Below are positions 15,822 to 54,976 of a DNA stretch of 64,000 bases, piece by piece. Below the pieces are notes generated by a model. It searched no databases and was not told the origin of the DNA. It saw nothing but the letters and a program-made list of their open reading frames with translations. Position 1 is the first letter of the stretch. Every line of letters begins with the position of its first letter. A program made the translations under genes and the position numbers. The stretch spans positions 54,385 to 118,384 of the forward strand of contig JACQXK010000032.1 in the NCBI GenBank assembly GCA_016208765.1. The letters run 5' to 3'. Origin of the DNA: Candidatus Omnitrophota bacterium. Its GTDB lineage: Bacteria; Omnitrophota; Gorgyraeia; Gygaellales; Profunditerraquicolaceae.

Positions 15822-16859
15822 CTAAATTATTTCTACTTCTTTTCTTCCTTTAACAACTTCGCCAATGATCCACGATTTTAGCTTCATCTGCGCCAATCTT
15901 TGCATTATTTTTCCCGCTGAATATTCTTTTACAATTAAGACCATGCCGATACCCATATTTAATGTGTGATACATTTCTTTATCAGCAATGCTGCCTTTAT
16001 TTTGAACGAGTTTAAAAATCGCCGGCACCGGCCATGAATTCTTCTTAATTACCACATTAAGACTATCGGGTAAAATACGGGAAATCTTGTCATAAAAAGC
16101 GCCGCCTGTGATGTGGGATATACCTGTGATTGTCGCCGGTCTCCGGTCGCCTGTTGCCTGTTGCCGGTCGCCTGTCGCCTGTAAGAGAGATAAAACCGGC
16201 TTAACATAAATACGAGTTGGACGAAGAAGTTCACTGCTCATTCTCTTCTGCTCAGCCAAAGATAATACCTTGCGTACCAAAGAATACCCATTAGAATGCA
16301 GCCCATTTGATTCCAGCCCAATTACAACATTACCTTGTTCAATTAGCTTGCCGTCAATGATCTTGCTGCGCTCAACCACCCCCACGCAAAACCCCGCCAC
16401 ATCATAATCATCTTTTTTATACATCCCGGGCATTTGCGCAGTTTCTCCGCCGATCAAAGAACACCCTGCCTCAATGCATCCATTATTGATGCCCTTTACC
16501 AAATCCAGCAATATTTTCTCCCCCGCATTACTATGGGCAATATAATCAAGAAAAAATAAGGGCTCAGCTCCTGTACATAAAATATCATTTACATTCATCG
16601 CCACAGCATCTATGCCGACAGTATCATGTTTATTGGCTAAAATAGCGATCTTGATTTTCGTGCCGATGCCGTCTGCCGAAGAAACTAAAACCGGCTCTTT
16701 AAAATTACGGGAAGGAAATTTAAAAAAACTTCCAAATCCTCCGATATCAGTTAAAACCTCCGGGCGAAAGGAATTGCGCACCAATGATTTTATCTTGCCC
16801 TTGAAAAACCCTGCAGCCTGAATGTCCACGCCTGCATTCTTATATGTAACTTTTTTCAT
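15822..16859 (-). CDS. purM: Phosphoribosylformylglycinamidine cyclo-ligase (AIR synthetase) with a repeat-encoded loop insertion
   Basis: PurM signatures (VGIDAVAMNVNDIL...HITGGAF). An extra LLQATGDRQQATGDRRPAT loop is encoded by the GC-rich heptanucleotide repeat. Confidence 0.9.
   Translation of the reverse strand: MKKVTYKNAGVDIQAAGFFKGKIKSLVRNSFRPEVLTDIGGFGSFFKFPSRNFKEPVLVSSADGIGTKIKIAILANKHDTVGIDAVAMNVNDILCTGAEPLFFLDYIAHSNAGEKILLDLVKGINNGCIEAGCSLIGGETAQMPGMYKKDDYDVAGFCVGVVERSKIIDGKLIEQGNVVIGLESNGLHSNGYSLVRKVLSLAEQKRMSSELLRPTRIYVKPVLSLLQATGDRQQATGDRRPATITGISHITGGAFYDKISRILPDSLNVVIKKNSWPVPAIFKLVQNKGSIADKEMYHTLNMGIGMVLIVKEYSAGKIMQRLAQMKLKSWIIGEVVKGRKEVEII
16131..16185. repeat. Heptanucleotide tandem repeat (CGCCTGT/ACAGGCG)n, ~7 units, in frame inside purM
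   Basis: Plus strand: ggtcgcctgttgcctgttgccggtcgcctgtcgcctgt. It is GC-rich against the AT-rich genome and translates as QATGDR repeats. Confidence 0.8.
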
Positions 16860-16886: not shown

Positions 16887-18329
16887 CTAAATCCCGCCCT
16901 GCCCGCAGCAACGCGCCTCAAGAGAAAATTTTCCCTGCATCTTCTCAGGTAAAATCGGATAATTTCCAGTCCAACACGCGGTACAGTTGTTTTTTCCATT
17001 ATCCTTAAAACACCCAAGCATCCCTTCCAGGCTCAAATAGCCGAGGCTGTCCACATCCAAATATTTTCTTACCGCATCAAGCGATTCATATTTATTGGCA
17101 ATCAGTTCGCTTGAACGGTGAAAATCAATGCCATAAAAACAAGGGAATTTATGCGCCGGGCATGATATTCTCAAATGCACCTCTTTTACCCCGGCCCTGC
17201 GCAAATTACGCACACGAATCTGCGAGGTAGTGCCGCGCACAATAGAATCATCCACCACTACAATACGCTTACCTCTTAAAACATCCTTTAAAATATTAAA
17301 TTTAACTTTTACCCCTAAGTCGCGTGTATCCTGCGCAGGCTGTATAAAGGTCCTGCCCACATAATGATTGCGGATAATCCCCATCTCAAGAGGAATCTTT
17401 GATTCCTCAGAATAACCGAGTGCCGCAGAAAACCCTGAGTCAGGCACCGGCACAACAAAATCCGCCTTTACCGGATACTCCCTGGCAAGCTGTGCGCCTA
17501 ATTTACGCCTGACAGTATGCACAGTCTGTCCGAAAACCATAGAATCCGGGCGTGAAAAATAAACATGCTCAAATGTACAATGAGAATATTTAGTACAAAG
17601 CTGCAGCTCTTTTGGTTTTACCGAACGAATGCTGTCTTTTTTTATAATTACGATTTCTCCCGGCTCCACCTCGCGGACAAGGCGCGCTCCGATCAAATCA
17701 AAGGCACAGGTTTCAGAAGCAAGGCACCACGCATTTCCAAGCTTCCCCAAAACAAGCGGGCGGAAACCAAAAGGATCCCTTACCCCTACGAGGCTTTCAG
17801 AATCCATCAAGATCAAAGAATAAGCCCCCTTAATTTTCTTAAGCGCATGTACTAAACTTGTAACCAAATTTAACGACCTGCTGCGCGCCATAAGATGGAT
17901 TACAATCTCTGAATCAGTAGTGGTCTGAAAAATAGAGCCGCTTTTTTCAAGCCCCTGGCGAAGCTCAAGTGAATTTACAAGGTTACCGTTATGCGCGATA
18001 CAGATTGAACCCTTGGCATAATCAATTAAAAGCGGCTGCGCATTTTTTAGGACACTGGAACCGGTAGTTGAATATCGCACGTGTCCGCATGCAGCAGTGC
18101 CTTTTAAGCTACTTAGGACATGTTCATCAAATACATCGCTTACCAAACCCATGTTTTTATGAATATTTAAAACGCCTTTATTATTAACAACTATGCCGCA
18201 AGCCTCCTGCCCCCTGTGCTGAAGCGAATACAAGCCAAGGTAAGTGAGCCAGCTTGCCTGCTTATGATTTATAATTCCAAACAGGCCGCAATACTCGTTG
18301 GCTTGGTCATCATAAATTATTTTTCGCAT
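16887..18329 (-). CDS. purF: Amidophosphoribosyltransferase (with a short propeptide before the catalytic Cys)
   Basis: CGLFGI N-terminal nucleophile motif, a PRTase motif (VVVDDSIVRGTT) and a C-terminal Cys cluster. Confidence 0.9.
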   Translation of the reverse strand: MRKIIYDDQANEYCGLFGIINHKQASWLTYLGLYSLQHRGQEACGIVVNNKGVLNIHKNMGLVSDVFDEHVLSSLKGTAACGHVRYSTTGSSVLKNAQPLLIDYAKGSICIAHNGNLVNSLELRQGLEKSGSIFQTTTDSEIVIHLMARSRSLNLVTSLVHALKKIKGAYSLILMDSESLVGVRDPFGFRPLVLGKLGNAWCLASETCAFDLIGARLVREVEPGEIVIIKKDSIRSVKPKELQLCTKYSHCTFEHVYFSRPDSMVFGQTVHTVRRKLGAQLAREYPVKADFVVPVPDSGFSAALGYSEESKIPLEMGIIRNHYVGRTFIQPAQDTRDLGVKVKFNILKDVLRGKRIVVVDDSIVRGTTSQIRVRNLRRAGVKEVHLRISCPAHKFPCFYGIDFHRSSELIANKYESLDAVRKYLDVDSLGYLSLEGMLGCFKDNGKNNCTACWTGNYPILPEKMQGKFSLEARCCGQGGI

Positions 18330-19119
18330 ATTCCACTCCATTCTTAATAATTAAGAAACCGCTGCCTTGTTTCTCCGGCTCATGGGCCGGATGCTGCCAA
18401 GAAAACGCGTGGCGCTCAGGATGCGGCATCAGGCCTAAAATCCTGCCGGTATCGTCACAAATCCCGGCGATATTCTCAACTGAACCATTGGGATTATCAG
18501 GATAACCGCTTAAATTTCCCTGTTTGTCGCAATATTGAAAAACAACCTGCCCTCTCTTATTTAAACTCTCTAAAACCTGTTTGTCCTTAGTAATAAATTT
18601 TCCTTCTCCATGAGCCACTGGGAGATAAATAGTTTCTGGTAAATTCTTAGCCCAGATACACTTTACCTGCGACAGGCGACCGGAGACAGGAGACAGGCGA
18701 CTATTAACCGGTGACTTTAAATAAATCCAGCGATCTTCAAATTTTCCTGAATCATTAATAATTAAACTTACTTCTTGGGTGAAGTTTTCATTACCCGGCA
18801 ACAGCCCTGCTTTAACTAAAATCTGGAATCCATTACAAATGCCTATGATCAGCTTGCCGGAAGAAATAAATTCCTTTATATCGCCTGAAAGTTTAAATTT
18901 TAGTTCATTTGCCAAAACCTTTCCGGCACCCAAATCATCCCCATAGCTGAATCCTCCGGAAAGGGCCAGGATTTGATACTCCTTAAGGCTCTTTTGTTTA
19001 CTGCAAAAAGCATTAATATGCACGAATTCCGCCTGAGCACCCGCTTTCTCAAAACTAAAAGCGGTTTCCTTGTCGCAATTGGTCCCGGCTGTTCTTAGGA
19101 TACAAACCTTTGGCTTCAT
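18310..19119 (-). CDS. purQ: Phosphoribosylformylglycinamidine synthase, glutaminase subunit (PurQ) with a repeat-encoded insertion
   Basis: Class I glutamine amidotransferase triad context (GICNGFQ, HPE). Carries a SPVNSRLSPVSGRLS insert. Confidence 0.9.
   Translation of the reverse strand: MKPKVCILRTAGTNCDKETAFSFEKAGAQAEFVHINAFCSKQKSLKEYQILALSGGFSYGDDLGAGKVLANELKFKLSGDIKEFISSGKLIIGICNGFQILVKAGLLPGNENFTQEVSLIINDSGKFEDRWIYLKSPVNSRLSPVSGRLSQVKCIWAKNLPETIYLPVAHGEGKFITKDKQVLESLNKRGQVVFQYCDKQGNLSGYPDNPNGSVENIAGICDDTGRILGLMPHPERHAFSWQHPAHEPEKQGSGFLIIKNGVEYAKNNL
18667..18715. repeat. Heptanucleotide tandem repeat (GACAGGC)n inside purQ, in the opposite genomic orientation to the purM copy
   Basis: Plus strand: gcgacaggcgaccggagacaggagacaggcgac. 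Translated on the minus strand as SPVSGRL repeats. Confidence 0.8.
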
Positions 19120-19781
19120 CTTTTGTAAAACTTATTAATCACATCCACCACTTCTCTTGGCTTATCCACCACTTTAAAAATATCCAAATCTTTCTTGCTG
19201 ATATTTGCGTTCTTTTCTAAAACAGTTTCTTTTAACCAGTCCAGCATCTTTTGCCAATAGTCCCTGCCGAATAACACTACGGGAAACCTCGGTATCCTGC
19301 GTGTTTGGATCAAATTAATTGCCTCAAAAAATTCATCAAGCGTGCCGTAACCTCCGGGCATAATCACAAACGCCTTGGCATATTTAACAAACATAACCTT
19401 GCGCACAAAAAAATAATGAAAATCAACCAGGGTATCCACGTATTCATTTGGCTTCTGTTCAAGAGGAATTTGAATGTTTAATCCGATAGACTGGCCCTTT
19501 GCCCGGCGAGCGCCTTTGTTTGCCGCTTCCATAATTCCAGGGCCGCTTCCTGTAATTACCGCATAACCTGCCTTGGCAATTAAATATGCTGTCTCCTCTG
19601 CAAGTTTATAATATTTTGCGTTAACAGGAGTGCGGCTTGAACCAAAGATAGAAACTGCCCTGCCCACATCAGACAAAACTTCAAACCCATCAACAAACTC
19701 CGACATGATCCTGAATATCCGCCACGGATCCTCATGAATAAAATCGTCTTTGACAATTTCTTTTTTATTTCTTTTTACCAT
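19116..19781 (-). CDS. LOG-family protein (TIGR00730-type nucleotide 5'-monophosphate nucleosidase / Rossmann-fold lysine-decarboxylase-like)
   Basis: LOG motifs VFGSSRT...GGGxGxMEA and PGGYGTLDE. Start chosen at MVKRN, immediately after the purL stop. Confidence 0.65.
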   Translation of the reverse strand: MVKRNKKEIVKDDFIHEDPWRIFRIMSEFVDGFEVLSDVGRAVSIFGSSRTPVNAKYYKLAEETAYLIAKAGYAVITGSGPGIMEAANKGARRAKGQSIGLNIQIPLEQKPNEYVDTLVDFHYFFVRKVMFVKYAKAFVIMPGGYGTLDEFFEAINLIQTRRIPRFPVVLFGRDYWQKMLDWLKETVLEKNANISKKDLDIFKVVDKPREVVDVINKFYKR

Positions 19782-22741
19782 GCTAAAGGATCCCTCCATG
19801 CCTTTTTTAATACACCGATACCTGCTGATATGCAAATCTTTCCATCAAGCCCGTAAACCCTGAATTCCTTTTTCTCTGATATGCAACCTGCCAATCCAAA
19901 GGAAATACCTTTTAGAATATTTTCAAATTTATTCTGATCCTTTTTTTCCACCTCCACAATAAACCGCGAGTTTGATTCCGAAAAAAGAATTACATCATTT
20001 CTTTGTTCTTCACTTTTAGATTTTTTGTTTTTAGTTTTGCGCTTTTCGCTTTGCGCTTCTACATATGGAATTGCACTAACAACCAACTCCATCCCCAGCC
20101 CGCCGGAAAATGCCATCTCTGCTGCTGCCACTGCAATACCGCCCTCTGAACAATCATGCATTGCCATGATTAATTTTAAATCCGAAGCCTTGCTTAAAGC
20201 ATTAAAAGTAGCAAGGGCTTTTTTTGCAAAAACCCTGGGGACATCATTACCCAAATACCCTGCCAAATCATAATAATGCGAACCGCCCAATTCCGGTAAA
20301 GTATTGCCCACAACATAAATTAAGTTTCCAGGCTTCTTTGCATACATAGACACAACTTTGTCCGTATCATCCATTACTGAAATAGCAGATATTAACAGAG
20401 TTCCTGGAATAGCAATAGAATGCCCATGCACTGCGTATTCATTATATAAACTGTCCTTACCGGAAATGAAAGGAACACCAAAGACCTTTGCAATATCATA
20501 ACATCCGTAAGCCGCACGCACCAAACTACCAAGCCTATCCGGCTTATCAGGATTTCCCCAGCAGAAATTATCTAAAATAGCAGTCTGCTTTAAAGAACCT
20601 CCCACTGCAACCACCTGCCGCAAGGCCTCATCAATCACCGAAGCAGACATCCAATAAGGATCAATCATTCCAAAACGAAAATTAATTCCATTAGAAACAA
20701 TAACGCCTTTTTTTGAACCTAAAAGCGGCTTGACTACGCTGGCATCAGACGGGCCATCATTAACAATCCCTGTTAATGGTTTTAAAACCGAGCCCCCTTG
20801 CACCTCATGGTCATACTGCCTGATCACCCATTCCTTAGAACAAATATCATAATGGCCCAATAAGCTAATCAGGCTTTTAGTTAAATCCTTAGGGCAATTT
20901 ATTTTCGGCTCACGATGGTTGTTTAAAACAAACATTGCTTTCTTTTCTATCTCGGGTATGCCGTCGTGCAGGAATTTCATACCCAAATCACAAACGAGAT
21001 TACCTTTATAATAAAGCTGAAGTTTCTCTGTATTGGTAAACTCGCCGATTACACTCGCCTCAACATTTTCAGCCGCAAAAACAGCCAATAGTTCCTCAGC
21101 CTTGTCAGGGCTGACTGAAATAACCATTCTCTCCTGTGATTCAGAGATCCAGATTTCCATATAAGAAAGCCCCGAATATTTTAAAGGGACTTTTTCCAAA
21201 TCAACTCTTACTCCCAGCTCAGCGCCCATCTCTCCAACTGCGCTTGATAATCCACCTGCGCCGCAATCAGTAATTGCAGTGTAAAGATTCTTATCGCGCG
21301 CCTGCAAGATCGTATCTACCATCTTCTTTTCCTGAATCGGATTTCCGATCTGCACTGCCCCGCTTGAAATCACTTCTGATTCATGGGTCAGTTCTCCTGA
21401 AGAAAATGTCGCTCCATGGATGCCGTCTCTGCCGGTCCTGCCGCCGACAACCACAACCAAATCTCCCGGATTGGTCTTCTTAAATGATTTATCTTTGGGC
21501 ATAATCCCGGCGGTGCCGCAATAAACAAGCGGATTACCCACAAAACCTTCATGAAAAAGTATTGCACCGTTTATTGTAGGAATGCCCATTTTATTGCCAT
21601 AATCACGAACGCCGCTGACTACACCCTTCATTACCCTTTTTGGATGAAGACTTCCCTGAGGAACTTTGCTAAACGCCGTGTCCGGAGAAGCAAAACAAAA
21701 TACGTCGGTATTAAGAATAGGCTTTGCGCCTAAGCCTGTTCCCAAAGGATCTCGGATCACTCCACCCACACCGGTATTTGCCCCGCCGAACGGCTCAAGC
21801 GCCGACGGGTGATTGTGCGTCTCAACCTTAAAACAAACATTATGTTTTTCGTCAAAACGAATTACACCGGAGTTATCCTTAAATACAGATACACACCAAG
21901 GTTTATTTAATTCCCTGGTAACTTTCATAATTGTTGATTTTAACAGATTATCAATTTTCCTGATCTTTCTATTCTCTGTATTCTTTTCTCTGTATTCTAT
22001 CTTCCCTCTGAATGTCTTATGATAGCAATGTTCCGACCACGTCTGGGCAATAGTTTCCAACTCGCAATCTGTGGGATTACGGCCTAATACCTTAAAATAT
22101 TTCTTTATCTGGCGCATTTCATTTAAATTTAAGAATAGCTGCCCTTGCTTACTAATATGCATCAACTTATTATCGCTGGCATTCAATAAATCAACATTGA
22201 TTAACTTAAACGCATAACTAATCTCCGCCTTATCTGGTGACAGGTGACAGGTAACAGGCGACAGGCGACCGGTGACAGGCGACACAAGATGCTGAATTAA
22301 TTTATTATAAAGTAATTTTTCAGAGATTGTTTTAAGCTGGGCTTCGGTAAGCTTTCCTTTAATCAGATATTTTTTTGAGGTTTTTACTGAAGTTATGCCG
22401 TTAATTCCCAAATCCATGATGCCTTTTAAAGCCGAATCCTCAACAGGATCCATTACTCCGGGATTATGAGCAACTTCAATAGTGAATTCGTCCCCGGTCG
22501 CCTGCCTGCGGCCGCCGGTTAATGCATTAACAGAAAAGTCCTGGGAAATCTTATCGGTGAGTAGTTCTTCGCAAATAGTTTTAAGTTCTTCTTCAGAAAC
22601 ATACCCCTCTAAAATATAAACCTGGGCAAAATGCACGCCGGAAACAGAATCAATTCCGAAATCAGAAATATCCCTCTTAATGCCGTCACCAACAGCATCA
22701 AAGATTCCCGGCTTATCTTTAACTTCAATTTTATAAAACAT
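19775..22741 (-). CDS. purL: PurS-PurS-PurL fusion: FGAM synthase large subunit with two N-terminal PurS-like domains, both carrying repeat-encoded inserts
   Basis: 988 aa. The first ~240 aa contain two PurS-like domains, followed by a canonical PurL (AIR-synthase-related duplicated domains). Repeat-encoded inserts: LTGGRRQATGDEF and LVSPVTGRLSPVTCHLSP. Confidence 0.85.
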   Translation of the reverse strand: MFYKIEVKDKPGIFDAVGDGIKRDISDFGIDSVSGVHFAQVYILEGYVSEEELKTICEELLTDKISQDFSVNALTGGRRQATGDEFTIEVAHNPGVMDPVEDSALKGIMDLGINGITSVKTSKKYLIKGKLTEAQLKTISEKLLYNKLIQHLVSPVTGRLSPVTCHLSPDKAEISYAFKLINVDLLNASDNKLMHISKQGQLFLNLNEMRQIKKYFKVLGRNPTDCELETIAQTWSEHCYHKTFRGKIEYREKNTENRKIRKIDNLLKSTIMKVTRELNKPWCVSVFKDNSGVIRFDEKHNVCFKVETHNHPSALEPFGGANTGVGGVIRDPLGTGLGAKPILNTDVFCFASPDTAFSKVPQGSLHPKRVMKGVVSGVRDYGNKMGIPTINGAILFHEGFVGNPLVYCGTAGIMPKDKSFKKTNPGDLVVVVGGRTGRDGIHGATFSSGELTHESEVISSGAVQIGNPIQEKKMVDTILQARDKNLYTAITDCGAGGLSSAVGEMGAELGVRVDLEKVPLKYSGLSYMEIWISESQERMVISVSPDKAEELLAVFAAENVEASVIGEFTNTEKLQLYYKGNLVCDLGMKFLHDGIPEIEKKAMFVLNNHREPKINCPKDLTKSLISLLGHYDICSKEWVIRQYDHEVQGGSVLKPLTGIVNDGPSDASVVKPLLGSKKGVIVSNGINFRFGMIDPYWMSASVIDEALRQVVAVGGSLKQTAILDNFCWGNPDKPDRLGSLVRAAYGCYDIAKVFGVPFISGKDSLYNEYAVHGHSIAIPGTLLISAISVMDDTDKVVSMYAKKPGNLIYVVGNTLPELGGSHYYDLAGYLGNDVPRVFAKKALATFNALSKASDLKLIMAMHDCSEGGIAVAAAEMAFSGGLGMELVVSAIPYVEAQSEKRKTKNKKSKSEEQRNDVILFSESNSRFIVEVEKKDQNKFENILKGISFGLAGCISEKKEFRVYGLDGKICISAGIGVLKKAWRDPLAW
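22236..22285. repeat. Heptanucleotide tandem repeat (GACAGGY)n, ~7 units, in frame inside the second PurS-like domain of purL
   Basis: Plus strand: ggtgacaggtgacaggtaacaggcgacaggcgaccggtgacaggcgacac. Confidence 0.8.
22492..22520. repeat. Short, degenerate copy of the same GC-rich heptamer repeat inside the first PurS-like domain of purL
   Basis: Plus strand: ccccggtcgcctgcctgcggccgccggtt, encoding RRQATGD. Confidence 0.55.
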
Positions 22742-49932: not shown

Positions 49933-51469
49933 TTAGGCCTTCTCTCCTGCCTTTTTCTTTCGCCAGGCAATCTTTACTAATACCGCTAAAATCATAAACA
50001 ATAAAAACAGGCCTACTCGTGTTGCAAAAACAAACGGTTTATCTAAAGCAGAAACATTCTTCATAAAAATAACCGGCAACCATTCCTGCCAAAGCCACAT
50101 TCCCAATATGCAAAACAAAAACAAAGGCGTAATATATTTTATAATAAATTTATATATTCTTGGGATACGCATATCAGCGCCCTTATGCACTTCATCCCAC
50201 GCCTTTTCCATGCCAAAAACCCATGCAAAAAGAATTGCTTCTATGGTAGCAAACAAAACCAGGAAAAATGTCCCTCCCCAGAAGTCAAGCTCATCCACTA
50301 CGCCTCGGCCCAAAAAGAAAATTGCCGGCTGGCAAAGTATAAAAGAAACAATCCCAAAAATGGTTACTGCTTTCTTACGTCCGATATTAAATTCATCTTC
50401 AAGAAAAGAAACTGCTGGTTGTGCCAAGGACACCGCAGAAGTTATTCCTGCCAGGAATAATAAAAAAAACCATAAAAAACCAAACAAAAATGACAAAGGA
50501 AATTTTAATAAAACCAAGGGCATAGTTACAAAGCCTAAATTAAATACCCCGGAGCGCGCAATTGACTGGATATCCTGGGGCCCGAAAAAAACAAATGCCG
50601 CAGGGATCACAATGCTTGCGCCTAAAATAACTTCGGCTGTTTCATTTGTGCTGGCTGCGGTTAAGCCTGATAACGCCACATCATCGCCCTTAGAAAGATA
50701 ACTTGCATAAGTCAGAATCACTCCAATACCCACGCTTAAAGTAAAGAATATCTGCCCTGCTGCCTCAAGCCAGACCTTGGCTGATCTTAACGCAGAGAAA
50801 TCAGGATTCCATAAAAAACCGAATCCATTAACAATATTCCAATCCGGGCGCGCCGGATCAGGAGCGCCTAAAGTTACTACGCGTATCATCAGAATTATAC
50901 CAAAGATAAATAAAAGCTATCCCGCCTTTTATCCCGTAATAAATAACCCAGATATTTAAAACAAACGTCAACAAGAAAAAGAGATAGGCGGTATTTATCC
51001 CGTTAAAATGTTGATTCCTCGCCACACCCTGAAACCCCTGCAGAAAACTCTGCATATCAACCTGATTGCCGATATTCGCATACTTACCGGTAAGAGCAAA
51101 AAAACTATAAGCAAGGGTCCATGATTCAATAAATGTGTAATAGGTAAAAATAACCAGCGGGCCGAAAATACCAATTACCCCGAAGTATTTAATAAAGCGG
51201 TTCTTCTGCCAGACGCTGTGGAAAATACCCGGGGCGGTGCCATGCTCAAACCCGCCTCCATAACGGCCGAGCGTCCACTCAATCCACATCAGAGGGATTC
51301 CTAATAATAGAAGAGCAACAAAATAGGGGATCATAAATGCGCCTCCCCCGTTAGCGGCAGCTTTGGCAGGAAAACGCAGAAAATTACCCAGCCCGATGGC
51401 AGAACCTGCCACCGCCATGATTATTCCTAAACGAGAACCCCAACTGTCTCTTTTACCTGATTGTTTCAT
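49933..51469 (-). pseudogene. Neurotransmitter:sodium symporter (NSS/SLC6, LeuT-like) gene split by a frameshift near 50860-50890
   Basis: ORF 50858-51469 carries the NSS N-terminus (GLGNFLRFPAKAAANGGGAFMIPYF...). ORF 49933-50889 continues in another frame with the NSS core (VWLEAAGQIFFTLSVG...). Together they total ~520 aa, the length of LeuT. The shift falls in a T-rich run (gcttttatttatcttt). Confidence 0.65.
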
Positions 51470-52232: not shown

Positions 52233-52538
52233 TCAAAATTTCTTCCCGTGCCTATACGGGCGGGTTTTATTATACTCAATTTTCTTAAGCAAGGCCTGTT
52301 CTAAATTAATTTTACGAGCGCCGCAATAATCAAAGATACGGATCAGGCAATCTGCCAGCTCTTCTGCAACTTCTTCAGTTTTACCGCGGTTACGCATCGC
52401 CTCAAGCGCCTCAGATAATTCCGAATGCATCAGCGCAATTAACTCTCCTTCATTACGATCTTCTTCCCACCAACCCTTTTCTTTTGCCACCCGGTGGCAT
52501 TCTTTGACAAAATCGTTAATTAACCAATTCTTTTTTGC
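52233..52538 (-). CDS. MazG-like nucleotide pyrophosphohydrolase (small, single-domain)
   Basis: EExxE/ELxDxLI motifs (LSEALEAMRN...EELADCLIRIFD). Confidence 0.6.
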   Translation of the reverse strand, partial: AKKNWLINDFVKECHRVAKEKGWWEEDRNEGELIALMHSELSEALEAMRNRGKTEEVAEELADCLIRIFDYCGARKINLEQALLKKIEYNKTRPYRHGKKF

Positions 52539-52947
52539 CATCTGGGCCTGCCTCCAATCCGGAAAAGATAATCTTGGCAATGGATTCTTTTGAATACGTG
52601 CTTTGAGATACTATCTCAACCTGGGTTTTTCTTGACGAGAGTTCGTTAAAGAATATGCCGACAGGAGTCGTATCAGTTTCAGAAACATAAAACGCGATCA
52701 ACTGTTTCTTGGGTTCTTCAGCATAAATATAACAACCGTTTTCTTTTAAAATATCCTTAACCTTATTGTAACAAGTATTGTAATCATAATCAAAGATCTT
52801 AAACAAGGCATACTGGCGGTTTTCCTCCAAAACCTTGGTAGAAATCCCGGCAATACCTTTTGCCGTTTCTTTCATGCTTGCGCATCCGCACAACCCAATA
52901 ACCCAACAACCCAATAACCCGATAACCATGATCTTTTTTCTAAACAT
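52516..52947 (-). CDS. Hypothetical lipoprotein whose signal peptide is encoded by an 8-nt tandem repeat
   Basis: MFRKKIMVIGLLGCWVIGLCGCAS. The hydrophobic core is encoded by (ACCCAATA)x4.5 on the plus strand at 52886-52925. Confidence 0.4.
   Translation of the reverse strand: MFRKKIMVIGLLGCWVIGLCGCASMKETAKGIAGISTKVLEENRQYALFKIFDYDYNTCYNKVKDILKENGCYIYAEEPKKQLIAFYVSETDTTPVGIFFNELSSRKTQVEIVSQSTYSKESIAKIIFSGLEAGPDGKKELVN
52886..52925. repeat. Octanucleotide tandem repeat (ACCCAATA / TATTGGGT), ~4.5 units
   Basis: Plus strand: acccaataacccaacaacccaataacccgataacc. Confidence 0.7.
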
Positions 52948-52963
52948 ACCCGTCTGCCTCCTT

Positions 52964-54976
52964 TTATTCTCTAATCACCTGCCAAATTTTATCCAGATTC
53001 TTGCGCGCTTCCTCTTCCCCTCTCTTTGCAAATTCTTCTGCCCTATGCAGCTCAAGCCAGTTTAAACCAGAAGTATTCGGATGTAAAACCACATCTGCAA
53101 GCTGGGCCTCTTTAAGCGCAACCTCAGACTGCAGCACTTCAATGCTACTGAATATTATATCAAGAATATTATTTTTAAAACTATTTCTTATATATTCGCG
53201 CAGCCCAAACCAGCTTCTTTTCTTTATGTTGCCGGTAATACCGACCGAGATCTGGCCGCGAATTTCTTCATATTGGCGCAGGATATCTTGCCTTGAGGGA
53301 GTGACATTTACCGCGATAATTTTTTTCACCCCTATTTTAATTAAAGGCTCGGTAGGCAAGGGGTTAATGATCCCCCCGTCAAAAAGCATTTCTTCTTTTA
53401 TTTTAAATGGTAAGAAAACTCCCGGCATAGCGCAACTGGCCATTATCGCATCAACTAACAAGCCCTTTTCAAAAACCCGGGATTCTTTTCTTTTTACATC
53501 GGAGGCAACGATTTTTAGCGGAAGCTTTACATCATAAAAAGTTTTGTTGCCCAAGTGCCTATCCAGTAATTTGCGCAGTTTATTCCCTTTGATAAAACCC
53601 ATAAATGGCAGGGTAAAATCCAAAAGGTTCCAGATGTGCTTAGGCGCCTTAAATTCTTTAGTAATCTCAAGGATCTCTTCTGATGATTTGCCAATTGCCC
53701 ATAAGCTTGCAATTACAGAACCAATGCTTGCTCCCACGATTACATCTATAGGTATTTTTTCTTCTTCTATTACTTTCAAAACTCCAATATGGCAAAAACC
53801 ATACCCAACCCCCACCCCCAAAACCAAACCCACCATGCTTTCCCCGAGCTGGCGCGCGATCCTTCTTACAGCACGCGCATATTCGCAGACAGGCTCATCC
53901 TCAACTAACCGGTCGCAAGACTCAAGTTCAATTTTAGGAAGTGTGGCAAAAATATTTTTATTTAAAATTTCCACCTGCTCTTCATGAGTAAGCCTTGAAT
54001 GCTTGTATTCATTGATAACCACTTTTATTTTTTCTTCTTTAAAAGCAAATTCATCAACAAGCCTTTCAATTAAATGACGGGTCCTTTTTAAATCAACCTG
54101 CTCAGGGCTCGTCAAAATATGAATCACATCGGATTGATTCAGTATATTAAATATCGGCCTGTCCATCAATGAAGGAAGGTCTATGATCAAAAAATGATAA
54201 TCATTAACCAACAGGCTGATAATCCCCACGAGCCTGCGCACACAGATTTCATCTTCCGGCCTATAGTGAAAACAAACCAGGCCGATACCGGATTTAGCCT
54301 CCACCAGGAATTCTTTTACCAAATTCGGGTTATCAGCTGCCGAGTTTGACAGGTCAAGTATTTTGCAGCCGCTGAACCCTAATTTCTGCGGCAGGGTGTG
54401 AATTTTATCTAAAGGCAGGATATCAAGGATAACCACTGATTTATGCGTTTCTTTCTTGAGGCTCAACCCAAGATTCAATGCATAAATAGTTTTGCCTGCC
54501 TGAGAATATGAACTGAAAACAGAAATAATAGAACTTTCAAAAATTGTCTTCTGGTGCAGGTCTTTACGTTTAAGCCTTCGGGAAAGGGTTTTACTTAAAT
54601 CAATTGCCAGATGAGGCATCTTTCTCAAAAAATGATCAAAATCATCTTTCTTGATAAAAAGGATCACACAATCATTAATTGCCTGGGCAGTTACAGAGTG
54701 CGGCTCATTGGTTAAAAGAGAAATAATGCCGAAATATTTGGCCCGATGCAGGTATTCAAGGATTATTGCGTTACCAAAAGTATCCTTGCTTGAAATTACC
54801 ACCCTGCCGGCTAAAACACAATAAAACCCGCTTGGAGCATTGCCTTGTTCATAGATTATTTGCCCTTTTCTATATTCAAGGACCTCTGCCTTCTGGGAGA
54901 CCTGCTCCCGGTCCTCATCTGTTAGCTCGGAAAATAAGGGGATTTCCTGTAAAACAAGCTTGCTAATTTGTGCCAT
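52964..54976 (-). CDS. Cyclic-nucleotide-binding domain protein with a C-terminal patatin-like phospholipase (NTE-like architecture)
   Basis: N-terminal cNMP-binding fold (FYCVLAGRVVISSKD...). The central domain is a degenerate MinD/ParA-like region with no intact Walker A. The C-terminus carries patatin GxGxxG (GLVLGVGVGYGFCHIG) and GxSxG (GASIGS) motifs plus a catalytic Asp context (DGG). Confidence 0.7.
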   Translation of the reverse strand: MAQISKLVLQEIPLFSELTDEDREQVSQKAEVLEYRKGQIIYEQGNAPSGFYCVLAGRVVISSKDTFGNAIILEYLHRAKYFGIISLLTNEPHSVTAQAINDCVILFIKKDDFDHFLRKMPHLAIDLSKTLSRRLKRKDLHQKTIFESSIISVFSSYSQAGKTIYALNLGLSLKKETHKSVVILDILPLDKIHTLPQKLGFSGCKILDLSNSAADNPNLVKEFLVEAKSGIGLVCFHYRPEDEICVRRLVGIISLLVNDYHFLIIDLPSLMDRPIFNILNQSDVIHILTSPEQVDLKRTRHLIERLVDEFAFKEEKIKVVINEYKHSRLTHEEQVEILNKNIFATLPKIELESCDRLVEDEPVCEYARAVRRIARQLGESMVGLVLGVGVGYGFCHIGVLKVIEEEKIPIDVIVGASIGSVIASLWAIGKSSEEILEITKEFKAPKHIWNLLDFTLPFMGFIKGNKLRKLLDRHLGNKTFYDVKLPLKIVASDVKRKESRVFEKGLLVDAIMASCAMPGVFLPFKIKEEMLFDGGIINPLPTEPLIKIGVKKIIAVNVTPSRQDILRQYEEIRGQISVGITGNIKKRSWFGLREYIRNSFKNNILDIIFSSIEVLQSEVALKEAQLADVVLHPNTSGLNWLELHRAEEFAKRGEEEARKNLDKIWQVIRE

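Follow-up and report, generated by a model that had tools for sequence, protein, structure and literature searches.

An interrupted octanucleotide array in the signal peptide of an Omnitrophota lipoprotein is, on balance, a decayed coding repeat and not a working phase switch

The signal-peptide core of a predicted lipoprotein from a Candidatus Omnitrophota bacterium is encoded by an interrupted array of 8-nt units, located in the 64,000-nt stretch of contig JACQXK010000032.1 that we analysed (the window). On balance, we regard this tract as the decayed relic of a coding microsatellite that selection holds in frame, and not as a working ON/OFF switch. For the window copy such a switch is unproven and unlikely, and the tract would be at most a very low-rate one. 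In the family to which the gene belongs, the segment from the start codon to the lipobox is a specific hotspot of 7- and 8-nt arrays, and the interest of the case lies mainly in this family-level pattern and less in the window tract.

The features of the locus are listed in Table 1. Direct reading of the plus strand at 52892-52927 gave AACCCAAT AACCCAAC AACCCAAT AACCCGAT AACC, and TRF described the same tract with a period of 8, 4.5 copies, 89% matches and a score of 58. The tract is imperfect: two units carry substitutions, and each adjacent pair of units differs. On the coding (minus) strand the leader reads ATG TTT AGA AAA AAG ATC ATG GTT ATC GGG TTA TTG GGT TGT TGG GTT ATT GGG TTG TGC GGA TGC GCA, that is, MFRKKIMVIGLLGCWVIGLCGC followed by A (ASMKE in the product). 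The 8-nt units thus span codons 7-19 of the ORF as a non-triplet repeat inside the 5' coding region. When the window was shuffled 100 times with dinucleotides preserved, period-7/8 arrays scored at most 40 in TRF, and no shuffle reached 58. The 8-nt periodicity of the tract (29 of 37 matches) also exceeded that obtained by synonymous-codon resampling with the same peptide and the window codon usage (P = 6e-4), and the array recurred in assemblies of independent origin (NCBI, JGI, Logan and ENA). Signal-peptide cores are low-complexity sequence, and a T/G-rich hydrophobic segment might look repetitive by composition alone. The shuffles and the codon resampling exclude a chance or compositional origin of the tract, and with the independent assemblies they make an artefact of composition or assembly a negligible explanation. 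When TTGGGTTATTGGGTT was searched for elsewhere in the window, there were four 3-mismatch matches besides three overlapping ones in the tract, and the total of 7 was reached by 16 of 100 shuffles; the octamer as a genome-wide element was dropped, since its matches in the window were not above chance. At 52906-52908 (codon 14, TGT), unit 4 has undergone a Tyr-to-Cys change that gives rise to a pseudo-lipobox inside the h-region, LLGC14, which is unusable because it lies too near the basic n-region; the counterpart codon is TAT in locus L003 and TTT in locus L004.

Table 1. Features of the lipoprotein locus in the window
Feature	Position	Strand	Basis
143-aa predicted lipoprotein gene, HY761_06150	52516..52947	-	ORF; exact match to P0001, hypothetical protein of Candidatus Omnitrophica MAG
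Predicted signal peptide, aa 1-21, with codon of putatively lipidated Cys22 (52882-52884)	52882..52947	-	n-region MFRKK, h-region IMVIGLLGCWVIG, lipobox L-C-G
Six-unit octanucleotide array, orthologue register	52886-52933	-	coding strand GATCATGG TTATCGGG TTATTGGG TTGTTGGG TTATTGGG TTGTGCGG; TRF core 52892-52927
Two perfect 15-nt direct repeats GGGTTATTGGGTTGT, 16-nt spacing	52906-52920 and 52890-52904	-	perfect period-16 run of 15
Shine-Dalgarno GGAGG, 9 nt 5' of ATG	52957..52961	-	sequence
Upstream 670-aa gene: cNMP-binding, ParA-like and patatin phospholipase domains	52964..54976	-	Pfam
Downstream 102-aa MazG-like gene, 26-nt overlap with lipoprotein 3' end	52233..52541	-	Pfam MazG; gene calls in L001/L004; sequence

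The leader has the parts expected of a lipoprotein signal peptide, namely a basic n-region, an uncharged h-region, a lipobox and a Cys at position 15-35, represented by MFRKK, IMVIGLLGCWVIG, L-C-G and C22, and we take it, from comparison by eye, to fit a PROSITE PS51257-type rule. Homology searches returned several hundred homologues, 237 of which were read (120 + 117), and nearly all those with a source name or record title came from Omnitrophota. Residues G21 and C22 were invariant in the 34-sequence family alignment, suggesting that Cys22 is the lipidated residue. It aligned with the invariant lipobox Cys of >250 homologues, and all homologues with complete N-termini showed the ..xGC then A(T/S)(I/V/M)KE junction. 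By these sequence features the window protein is predicted to be a lipoprotein (Lgt/Lsp substrate) with a lipidated Cys22. The description in the earlier note is borne out to this extent: the octamer repeat is real, with two imperfect units; the peptide and the ORF coordinates agree with the coding-strand translation; and the tract encodes the h-region and lipobox. Its arithmetic also stands, as adding or removing 8 or 16 nt would truncate the window product to 19-54 aa (19 aa for -16, 54 aa for +16); a 24-nt change would leave the reading frame intact, with an h-region changed by 8 residues.

In the Pfam search, the window protein had no match to PF12092 (DUF3568) at E <= 0.01; 18 of the 34 aligned relatives matched it (best E = 4.6e-6), and some relatives are labelled 'DUF3568 family protein' in their source records. 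An AF2 model of the mature domain (pLDDT 85, pTM 0.71) was compared with the PDB by Foldseek, and Flpp3 took ranks 1-2 and 5 (6pny/9nlt/2mu4; E = 2.5e-4; TM normalised to target 0.55-0.61), with BamC domains next. The family profile, searched against PDB sequences, matched nothing. On the model, the mature domain is predicted to be DUF3568/Flpp3-like with a helix-grip fold. Flpp3 (FTT_1416c) belongs to the DUF3568 lipoproteins (PMC7431613). The window protein resembles them in being a small lipoprotein with a mature part of ~120 aa and a conserved N-terminal Cys, and in having Flpp3 and then BamC as its best structural matches; it differs in that the identity is only 15-17% and that a repeat-built leader is not described for Francisella.

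The lipoprotein gene belongs to a conserved operon. It starts 16 nt past the stop codon of the cNMP-binding/patatin gene, and this synteny is kept in L001-L005, L007, L169 and L172-L174. Premature termination in the lipoprotein gene could have a polar effect on the MazG-like gene. No notable promoter or terminator was found at the window gene. Elsewhere on the minus strand (window ~50917), a deletion of 26 nt, judged against the intact L003 orthologue (520 aa), splits an SNF-family sodium symporter gene into ORFs 50858-51469 and 49933-50889; the gene has either become a pseudogene or been misassembled.

Comparison with orthologues showed that the window tract has a fixed length and has decayed. 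The window, L001 and L002 are three assemblies of the window strain and carry an identical tract, and the sister lineage (L003/L004/L005/L009) has a tract of the same length at 83% nt identity in the mature region. Between the window and L003, nt identity was 83% in the mature region, 86% in the leader and 88% upstream, with zero indels. Because the leader identity matches that of the mature and upstream regions, the tract of the window lineage appears to evolve like ordinary sequence. A metagenome scan for the window gene found relatives of <=63% identity only, and no added alleles of the window lineage. Orthologues 44-57% identical in protein have the same array in the same register over 48 nt (six units, 16 aa), with the leader 'MKxxKR(YWVIGLLG)2C', and the ~17 distinct octamer-type orthologue leaders are all 48 nt. 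Among what would count against a switch, the earlier note had named invariance of unit number across related strains, and this is what we observed in the three assemblies, the sister lineage and these orthologues.

The arrays of several orthologues are homogenised: L015 has 5.4 perfect copies of TATTGGGT, L124 has 5.6 perfect copies of TATTGTTC, L146 has TATTGTCC x3.6, L095 has a 16-mer x3 and L014 a 24-mer x2.1. In these five loci within-array unit identity was 0.87-0.92, as against 0.63-0.77 to the orthologous positions of other species, showing that the arrays undergo concerted evolution, as their units are more alike within an array than between orthologous positions. The window array showed the reverse (mean within-array unit identity 0.61 vs 0.67 to orthologous positions), indicating that it has decayed without recent homogenisation. 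Its longest perfect period-8 run is 7 nt (<2 copies), and its longest perfect feature is the 15-nt direct repeat GGGTTATTGGGTTGT, the two copies of which, at 52890-52920, are the sole efficient-slippage substrate in the window genome. A perfect or near-perfect tract long enough for hypermutability is present in L015, L124 and L003 and is lacking in the window; the L003 tract has 4.1 perfect copies, and that of L004 one substitution. Interruption of repeat units should reduce slippage by orders of magnitude, as is known for the mutability of simple sequence repeats.

To place the window tract in its family, we examined ~170 loci from genome and metagenome collections (~175 related sequences including re-examined truncated calls). 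Of 147 non-redundant loci, 11 have a perfect 7/8-nt array of >=3.5 copies within the 60 nt that precede the lipobox Cys, compared with 2 of 5626 random same-locus windows (P = 1.5e-16); over whole leaders the count was 23 of 148 loci. At a score of >=40, TRF reported 48 arrays in leaders (32 of period 7 and 16 of period 8) and 4 in ~700 kb of flanks (3 of period 7 and 1 of period 8), and no leader array of period 6, 9, 12, 15 or 18. A second lipoprotein family, also encoded in these operons, had perfect arrays in 0 of 46 leaders, in contrast to 23 of 148 focal leaders (P = 0.003), suggesting that the hotspot is specific to this gene and not a generic trait of Omnitrophota signal peptides. There are at least 13 different array units across the family leaders, and the maximum is 5.6 perfect copies. 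Units in the h-region include TTATTGGG, TATTGTTC, TATTGTCC, TGGTTCT, TTTGTCA, CCTTTTA, TCTACTA and TACTTAC, those in the n-region AAAATCC, AAATTCA, AAATCCC, GCATATC and TTCAGCG, and some leaders consist of two arrays joined end to end.

This diversity bears on whether the array acts as nucleic acid, either as an array of regulator binding sites in RNA or DNA or as a structured 5' mRNA. The nucleotide periodicity exceeds what the peptide needs, and some arrays stay perfect over 14% divergence, as such an element would; yet the units differ completely among close relatives (TATTGGGT, TATTGTTC, TTTGTCA, AAAATCC and others) and the motif is not above chance elsewhere in the window. Moreover, the window 5' region had no significant RNA fold (z = -0.82), the repeat was unpaired in the predicted structure, and an Rfam search of the window region gave zero matches. 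We consider an element of this kind highly improbable.

We then consider the proposal of the earlier note that the tract is a phase-variation switch. An in-frame ATG with a Shine-Dalgarno sequence was present in 166 of 166 complete homologous loci, the three exceptions being contig ends. Among ~175 loci (166 complete and 8 with suspicious truncated calls) we found no OFF (out-of-frame) allele, all loci being consensus assemblies in which an OFF minority of <50% per population would be invisible. If the ON probability were 0.34, as in neuO, finding all 23 perfect-array loci ON would have P = 2e-11. Several candidates for frameshifted or length-variant alleles were rejected. Protein P0003 (119 aa) has an in-frame ATG 72 nt upstream and is a gene-caller mis-start; P0205, P0222 and P0196 (the last in six samples), 8 loci together, are likewise mis-starts with leaders all in frame; P0116 ends at a contig edge; and the 7-aa difference between P0005 and P0121 of one 90% cluster, taken as a 3-unit change, is due to start-codon choice. 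Contig ends within leaders, as a sign of heterogeneity, numbered 5 of ~170, too few for interpretation. Owing to the repeat-coded leaders, public gene callers repeatedly start the focal gene at an inner ATG, GTG or TTG and miss the leader, as in L003, L172, L173 and L174-L179, so that mis-started database proteins appear truncated though the repeat-coded leader is intact and in frame.

Copy number was equally constant. No difference was found among relatives 1-17% diverged. L119, L132 and L134 each have 4.6-4.7 perfect copies of AAAATCC in 50-aa leaders (L119 and L134, the pair measured, differ at ~14% of nt), and L042 and L149 share an identical array at 2% divergence. P0151, P0152, P0154, P0155 and P0156, which match the L124 query with 81-99% protein identity, have one octamer leader save for one I/V change in the n-region, and L174-L179 have one identical leader in six samples.

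A working contingency switch would toggle the lipoprotein between OFF and ON at raised frequency by slipped-strand mispairing, with ON favoured as the majority in all populations sampled and OFF cells hidden by the consensus. The non-triplet unit near the 5' end of a lipoprotein coding sequence, where an 8- or 16-nt slip truncates the product, fits this, as do the 7/8-nt enrichment of the leaders, the many independent units with concerted evolution, the lack of arrays in paralogous lipoprotein leaders and an architecture like that of opa and neuO. Against these stand the zero OFF alleles, the absence of copy-number differences between close relatives, the single leader of L174-L179, the shortness of all arrays (<=5.6 copies) and, in the window, an array without identical adjacent units. 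Taken together, these observations make a switch of this kind unlikely. Of the original proposal, then, what stands is that slippage-type processes act on the leaders of the family, as the enrichment indicates; the switch itself is at odds with the fixed length, the interrupted array and the constant frame. A low-rate switch is more plausible in the relatives with perfect arrays than in the window copy.

The reading we favour, a relic held in frame, could have come about as follows. The ancestral array would have been close to (TATTGGGT)6, encoding (YWVIGLLG)2 in six units and 48 nt, that is, the whole hydrophobic core of the signal peptide. Replication slippage or misaligned templating may create arrays of 7 or 8 nt in leaders and at times homogenise them. 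Read through its three frames, a non-triplet unit gives one cyclic peptide of 7 or 8 residues, and since all three frames of the unit give one usable peptide, such arrays would be tolerated: a T/G-rich unit may yield a peptide hydrophobic enough for an h-region, and an A-rich unit may suit an n-region by being sufficiently basic or polar. The array would then be held in frame, and its length fixed, by purifying selection. In the window lineage homogenisation has ended, point substitutions interrupt every unit pair, and the array appears to evolve like ordinary coding sequence, in which a rare 8- or 16-nt slip would be a simple knock-out. Our data show the anatomy of the locus, the enrichment of arrays across the family, concerted evolution in some orthologues, the constancy of length and frame, and the decay in the window; that slippage produced the arrays and that selection accounts for their constancy is what we infer from these patterns. 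Some observations sit less easily with a relic. Leader arrays have only period 7 or 8 and are absent from the second lipoprotein family, which looks more like selection than passive tolerance; variant units homogenised through 5 copies imply unit-level slippage, some steps of which were out of frame; perfect arrays at 14-19% divergence are unexpected under simple decay; the sister lineage L003 retains its perfect copies; and a minority OFF subpopulation (<50%) would be hidden in consensus assemblies.

Leaders have also been exchanged between nearly identical genes. L169 and L170 share 99.7% nt identity in the mature region and 39% in the leader (50 vs 23 aa), and L093 and L104 share 93% and 34%, respectively (34 vs 17 aa). 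Similarly, L124 and L014 have 22-aa octamer leaders, and L119 and L130 have 42-50-aa heptamer leaders; between these two groups the upstream genes are 92-94% identical and the mature regions 83-87%. Over all swap pairs the upstream gene was 92-96% identical, and the breakpoints coincided exactly with the ATG on one side and the lipobox GGTTGTGCG on the other. Five unrelated leaders occur within a single protein cluster of 90% identity (P0038 and members), and P0004 and P0135 have the same leader on diverged mature domains. These swaps on near-identical genes, and the sharing of a leader by diverged domains, suggest that leaders are cassettes exchanged by recombination on top of array turnover.

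The swaps have been weighed under two further readings. In the first, the leader would be a dedicated, slippage-driven hypervariable cassette, built only of non-triplet arrays, homogenised unit by unit and swapped between genes 93-99.7% identical, serving as an ON/OFF switch in minority subpopulations, as a tuning knob for export or as both, with the window copy as an ageing member; we think it doubtful. In the second, the leader would itself be the selected product: the cleaved signal peptide or its 7-8-residue fragments would serve for signalling or recognition, diversifying selection and cassette exchange would act on it, and the arrays would supply the raw material. A parallel would be the enterococcal sex pheromones, which are cut from lipoprotein signal peptides. 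The complete difference between leaders of near-identical genes, the exact breakpoints, the five leaders in one cluster and the P0004/P0135 leader, a recombination mosaic, would all suit a selected peptide, but the His, Ser and Cys residues of the peptides are set by the DNA unit, as in a by-product, and leader change is not accelerated in the window lineage. We therefore give this second reading very little credence.

Among known systems, the opa genes of Neisseria carry a CTCTT coding repeat in the leader peptide and switch at ~1e-3 per generation (PMC3960869), and opa alleles that have 1-4 repeats are not counted as phase-variable (PMC5953494). As in opa, the window repeat is non-triplet, lies inside the signal-peptide coding region and encodes the hydrophobic core, and a one-unit change shifts the frame past the start codon. 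Unlike the perfect opa tracts, whose number varies between strains and loci, the window array has an 8-nt unit, is interrupted and length-invariant and was never seen out of frame; and unlike the opa multigene family, the Omnitrophota gene seems to exist as one copy in a single syntenic position. The neuO gene of E. coli K1 has 3-53 heptamer copies and was OFF in 65.6% of 64 genomes (PMC13001214). The likeness lies in a 7-nt unit (AAGACTC) in the 5' coding region that is translated as a 7-residue peptide repeat; neuO is in frame only at copy numbers divisible by three, and its in-frame copy number can tune function. The Omnitrophota arrays differ from it in having <=5.6 copies, fixed among relatives, and 0 OFF in ~175 loci. 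Cyanobacterial STRR sequences are lineage-typical 7-nt tandem arrays of several unit families and are mostly intergenic. The Omnitrophota arrays, by contrast, are translated and confined to the leader of one gene, apart from another unit family that the window carries in its pur genes.

Frame-shifting repeats that encode a signal-peptide core are thus already known from opa. The present case is set apart by the 7-/8-nt units, the environmental candidate phylum, a leader family repeatedly rebuilt from non-triplet arrays yet always found in frame, and the cassette exchange between near-identical genes; the family-wide leader of this kind is new. Our literature search found no paper linking Omnitrophota with phase variation and nothing relevant on Omnitrophica and tandem repeats. 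To our knowledge, almost all known simple-sequence contingency loci belong to host-adapted pathogens and commensals; the present family comes from Omnitrophota that are free-living or episymbiotic and uncultivated. Should the hypervariable cassette be the right account, it would mark the first recognition of a contingency-type locus in an uncultivated environmental phylum, with the signal peptide varying and not the exposed protein, and if subpopulations do switch, phase variation would reach environmental ultra-small bacteria. If there is no switching, the family would be a clean natural case of slippage making and remodelling signal peptides under purifying selection, and a caution that a non-triplet repeat at the 5' end is by itself insufficient proof of phase variation.

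The window also contains imperfect in-frame heptamer arrays in its purine-biosynthesis region, at 16131-16182, 18671-18701 and 22236-22284, all of one unit family, TGTCRCC, in both orientations. They lie in the minus-strand ORFs 15822-16859, 18310-19119 and 19775-22741 and are translated as LQATGDRQQATGDRRPAT, SRLSPVSGRLS and VSPVTGRLSPVTCHLSP. The TGTCRCC pattern occurred 10 times in the window (0.05 expected) and was absent from 179 other Omnitrophota loci. The earlier note had cited these pur-gene heptamers in support of short repeats as genome-wide variability devices; they lend it no support, being of a different unit, imperfect, in frame, located in core enzymes and absent from the other loci.

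Three further observations concern individual leaders. At L070, two lipoprotein genes on one contig (2977-3005 and 3952-4033) have a common cyclic heptamer, GCATATC = ATCGCAT (peptide RISHIAY), in their n-regions; the pair consists of the focal family gene and a second, 140-aa paralogue, and this is the only paralogue leader with arrays. In the n-region of the L101 leader, a 21-nt GC-rich hairpin, CCTGCCTGGACGGCAGGCAGG, lies in frame within an A-rich heptamer array and looks like a miniature palindromic insertion; its peptide, ..(S/T)(A)GRQ(A).., also occurs in L042, L133, L019, P0029, P0080 and P0092. P0169, known as protein only and belonging to a cluster of seven member sequences, has a 26-aa in-frame insertion in an octamer-type leader, MKIVKRYCVIALS-RMQLLIKRRRFGIPTSIFRVVLFSG-LCYCFIALLGC.
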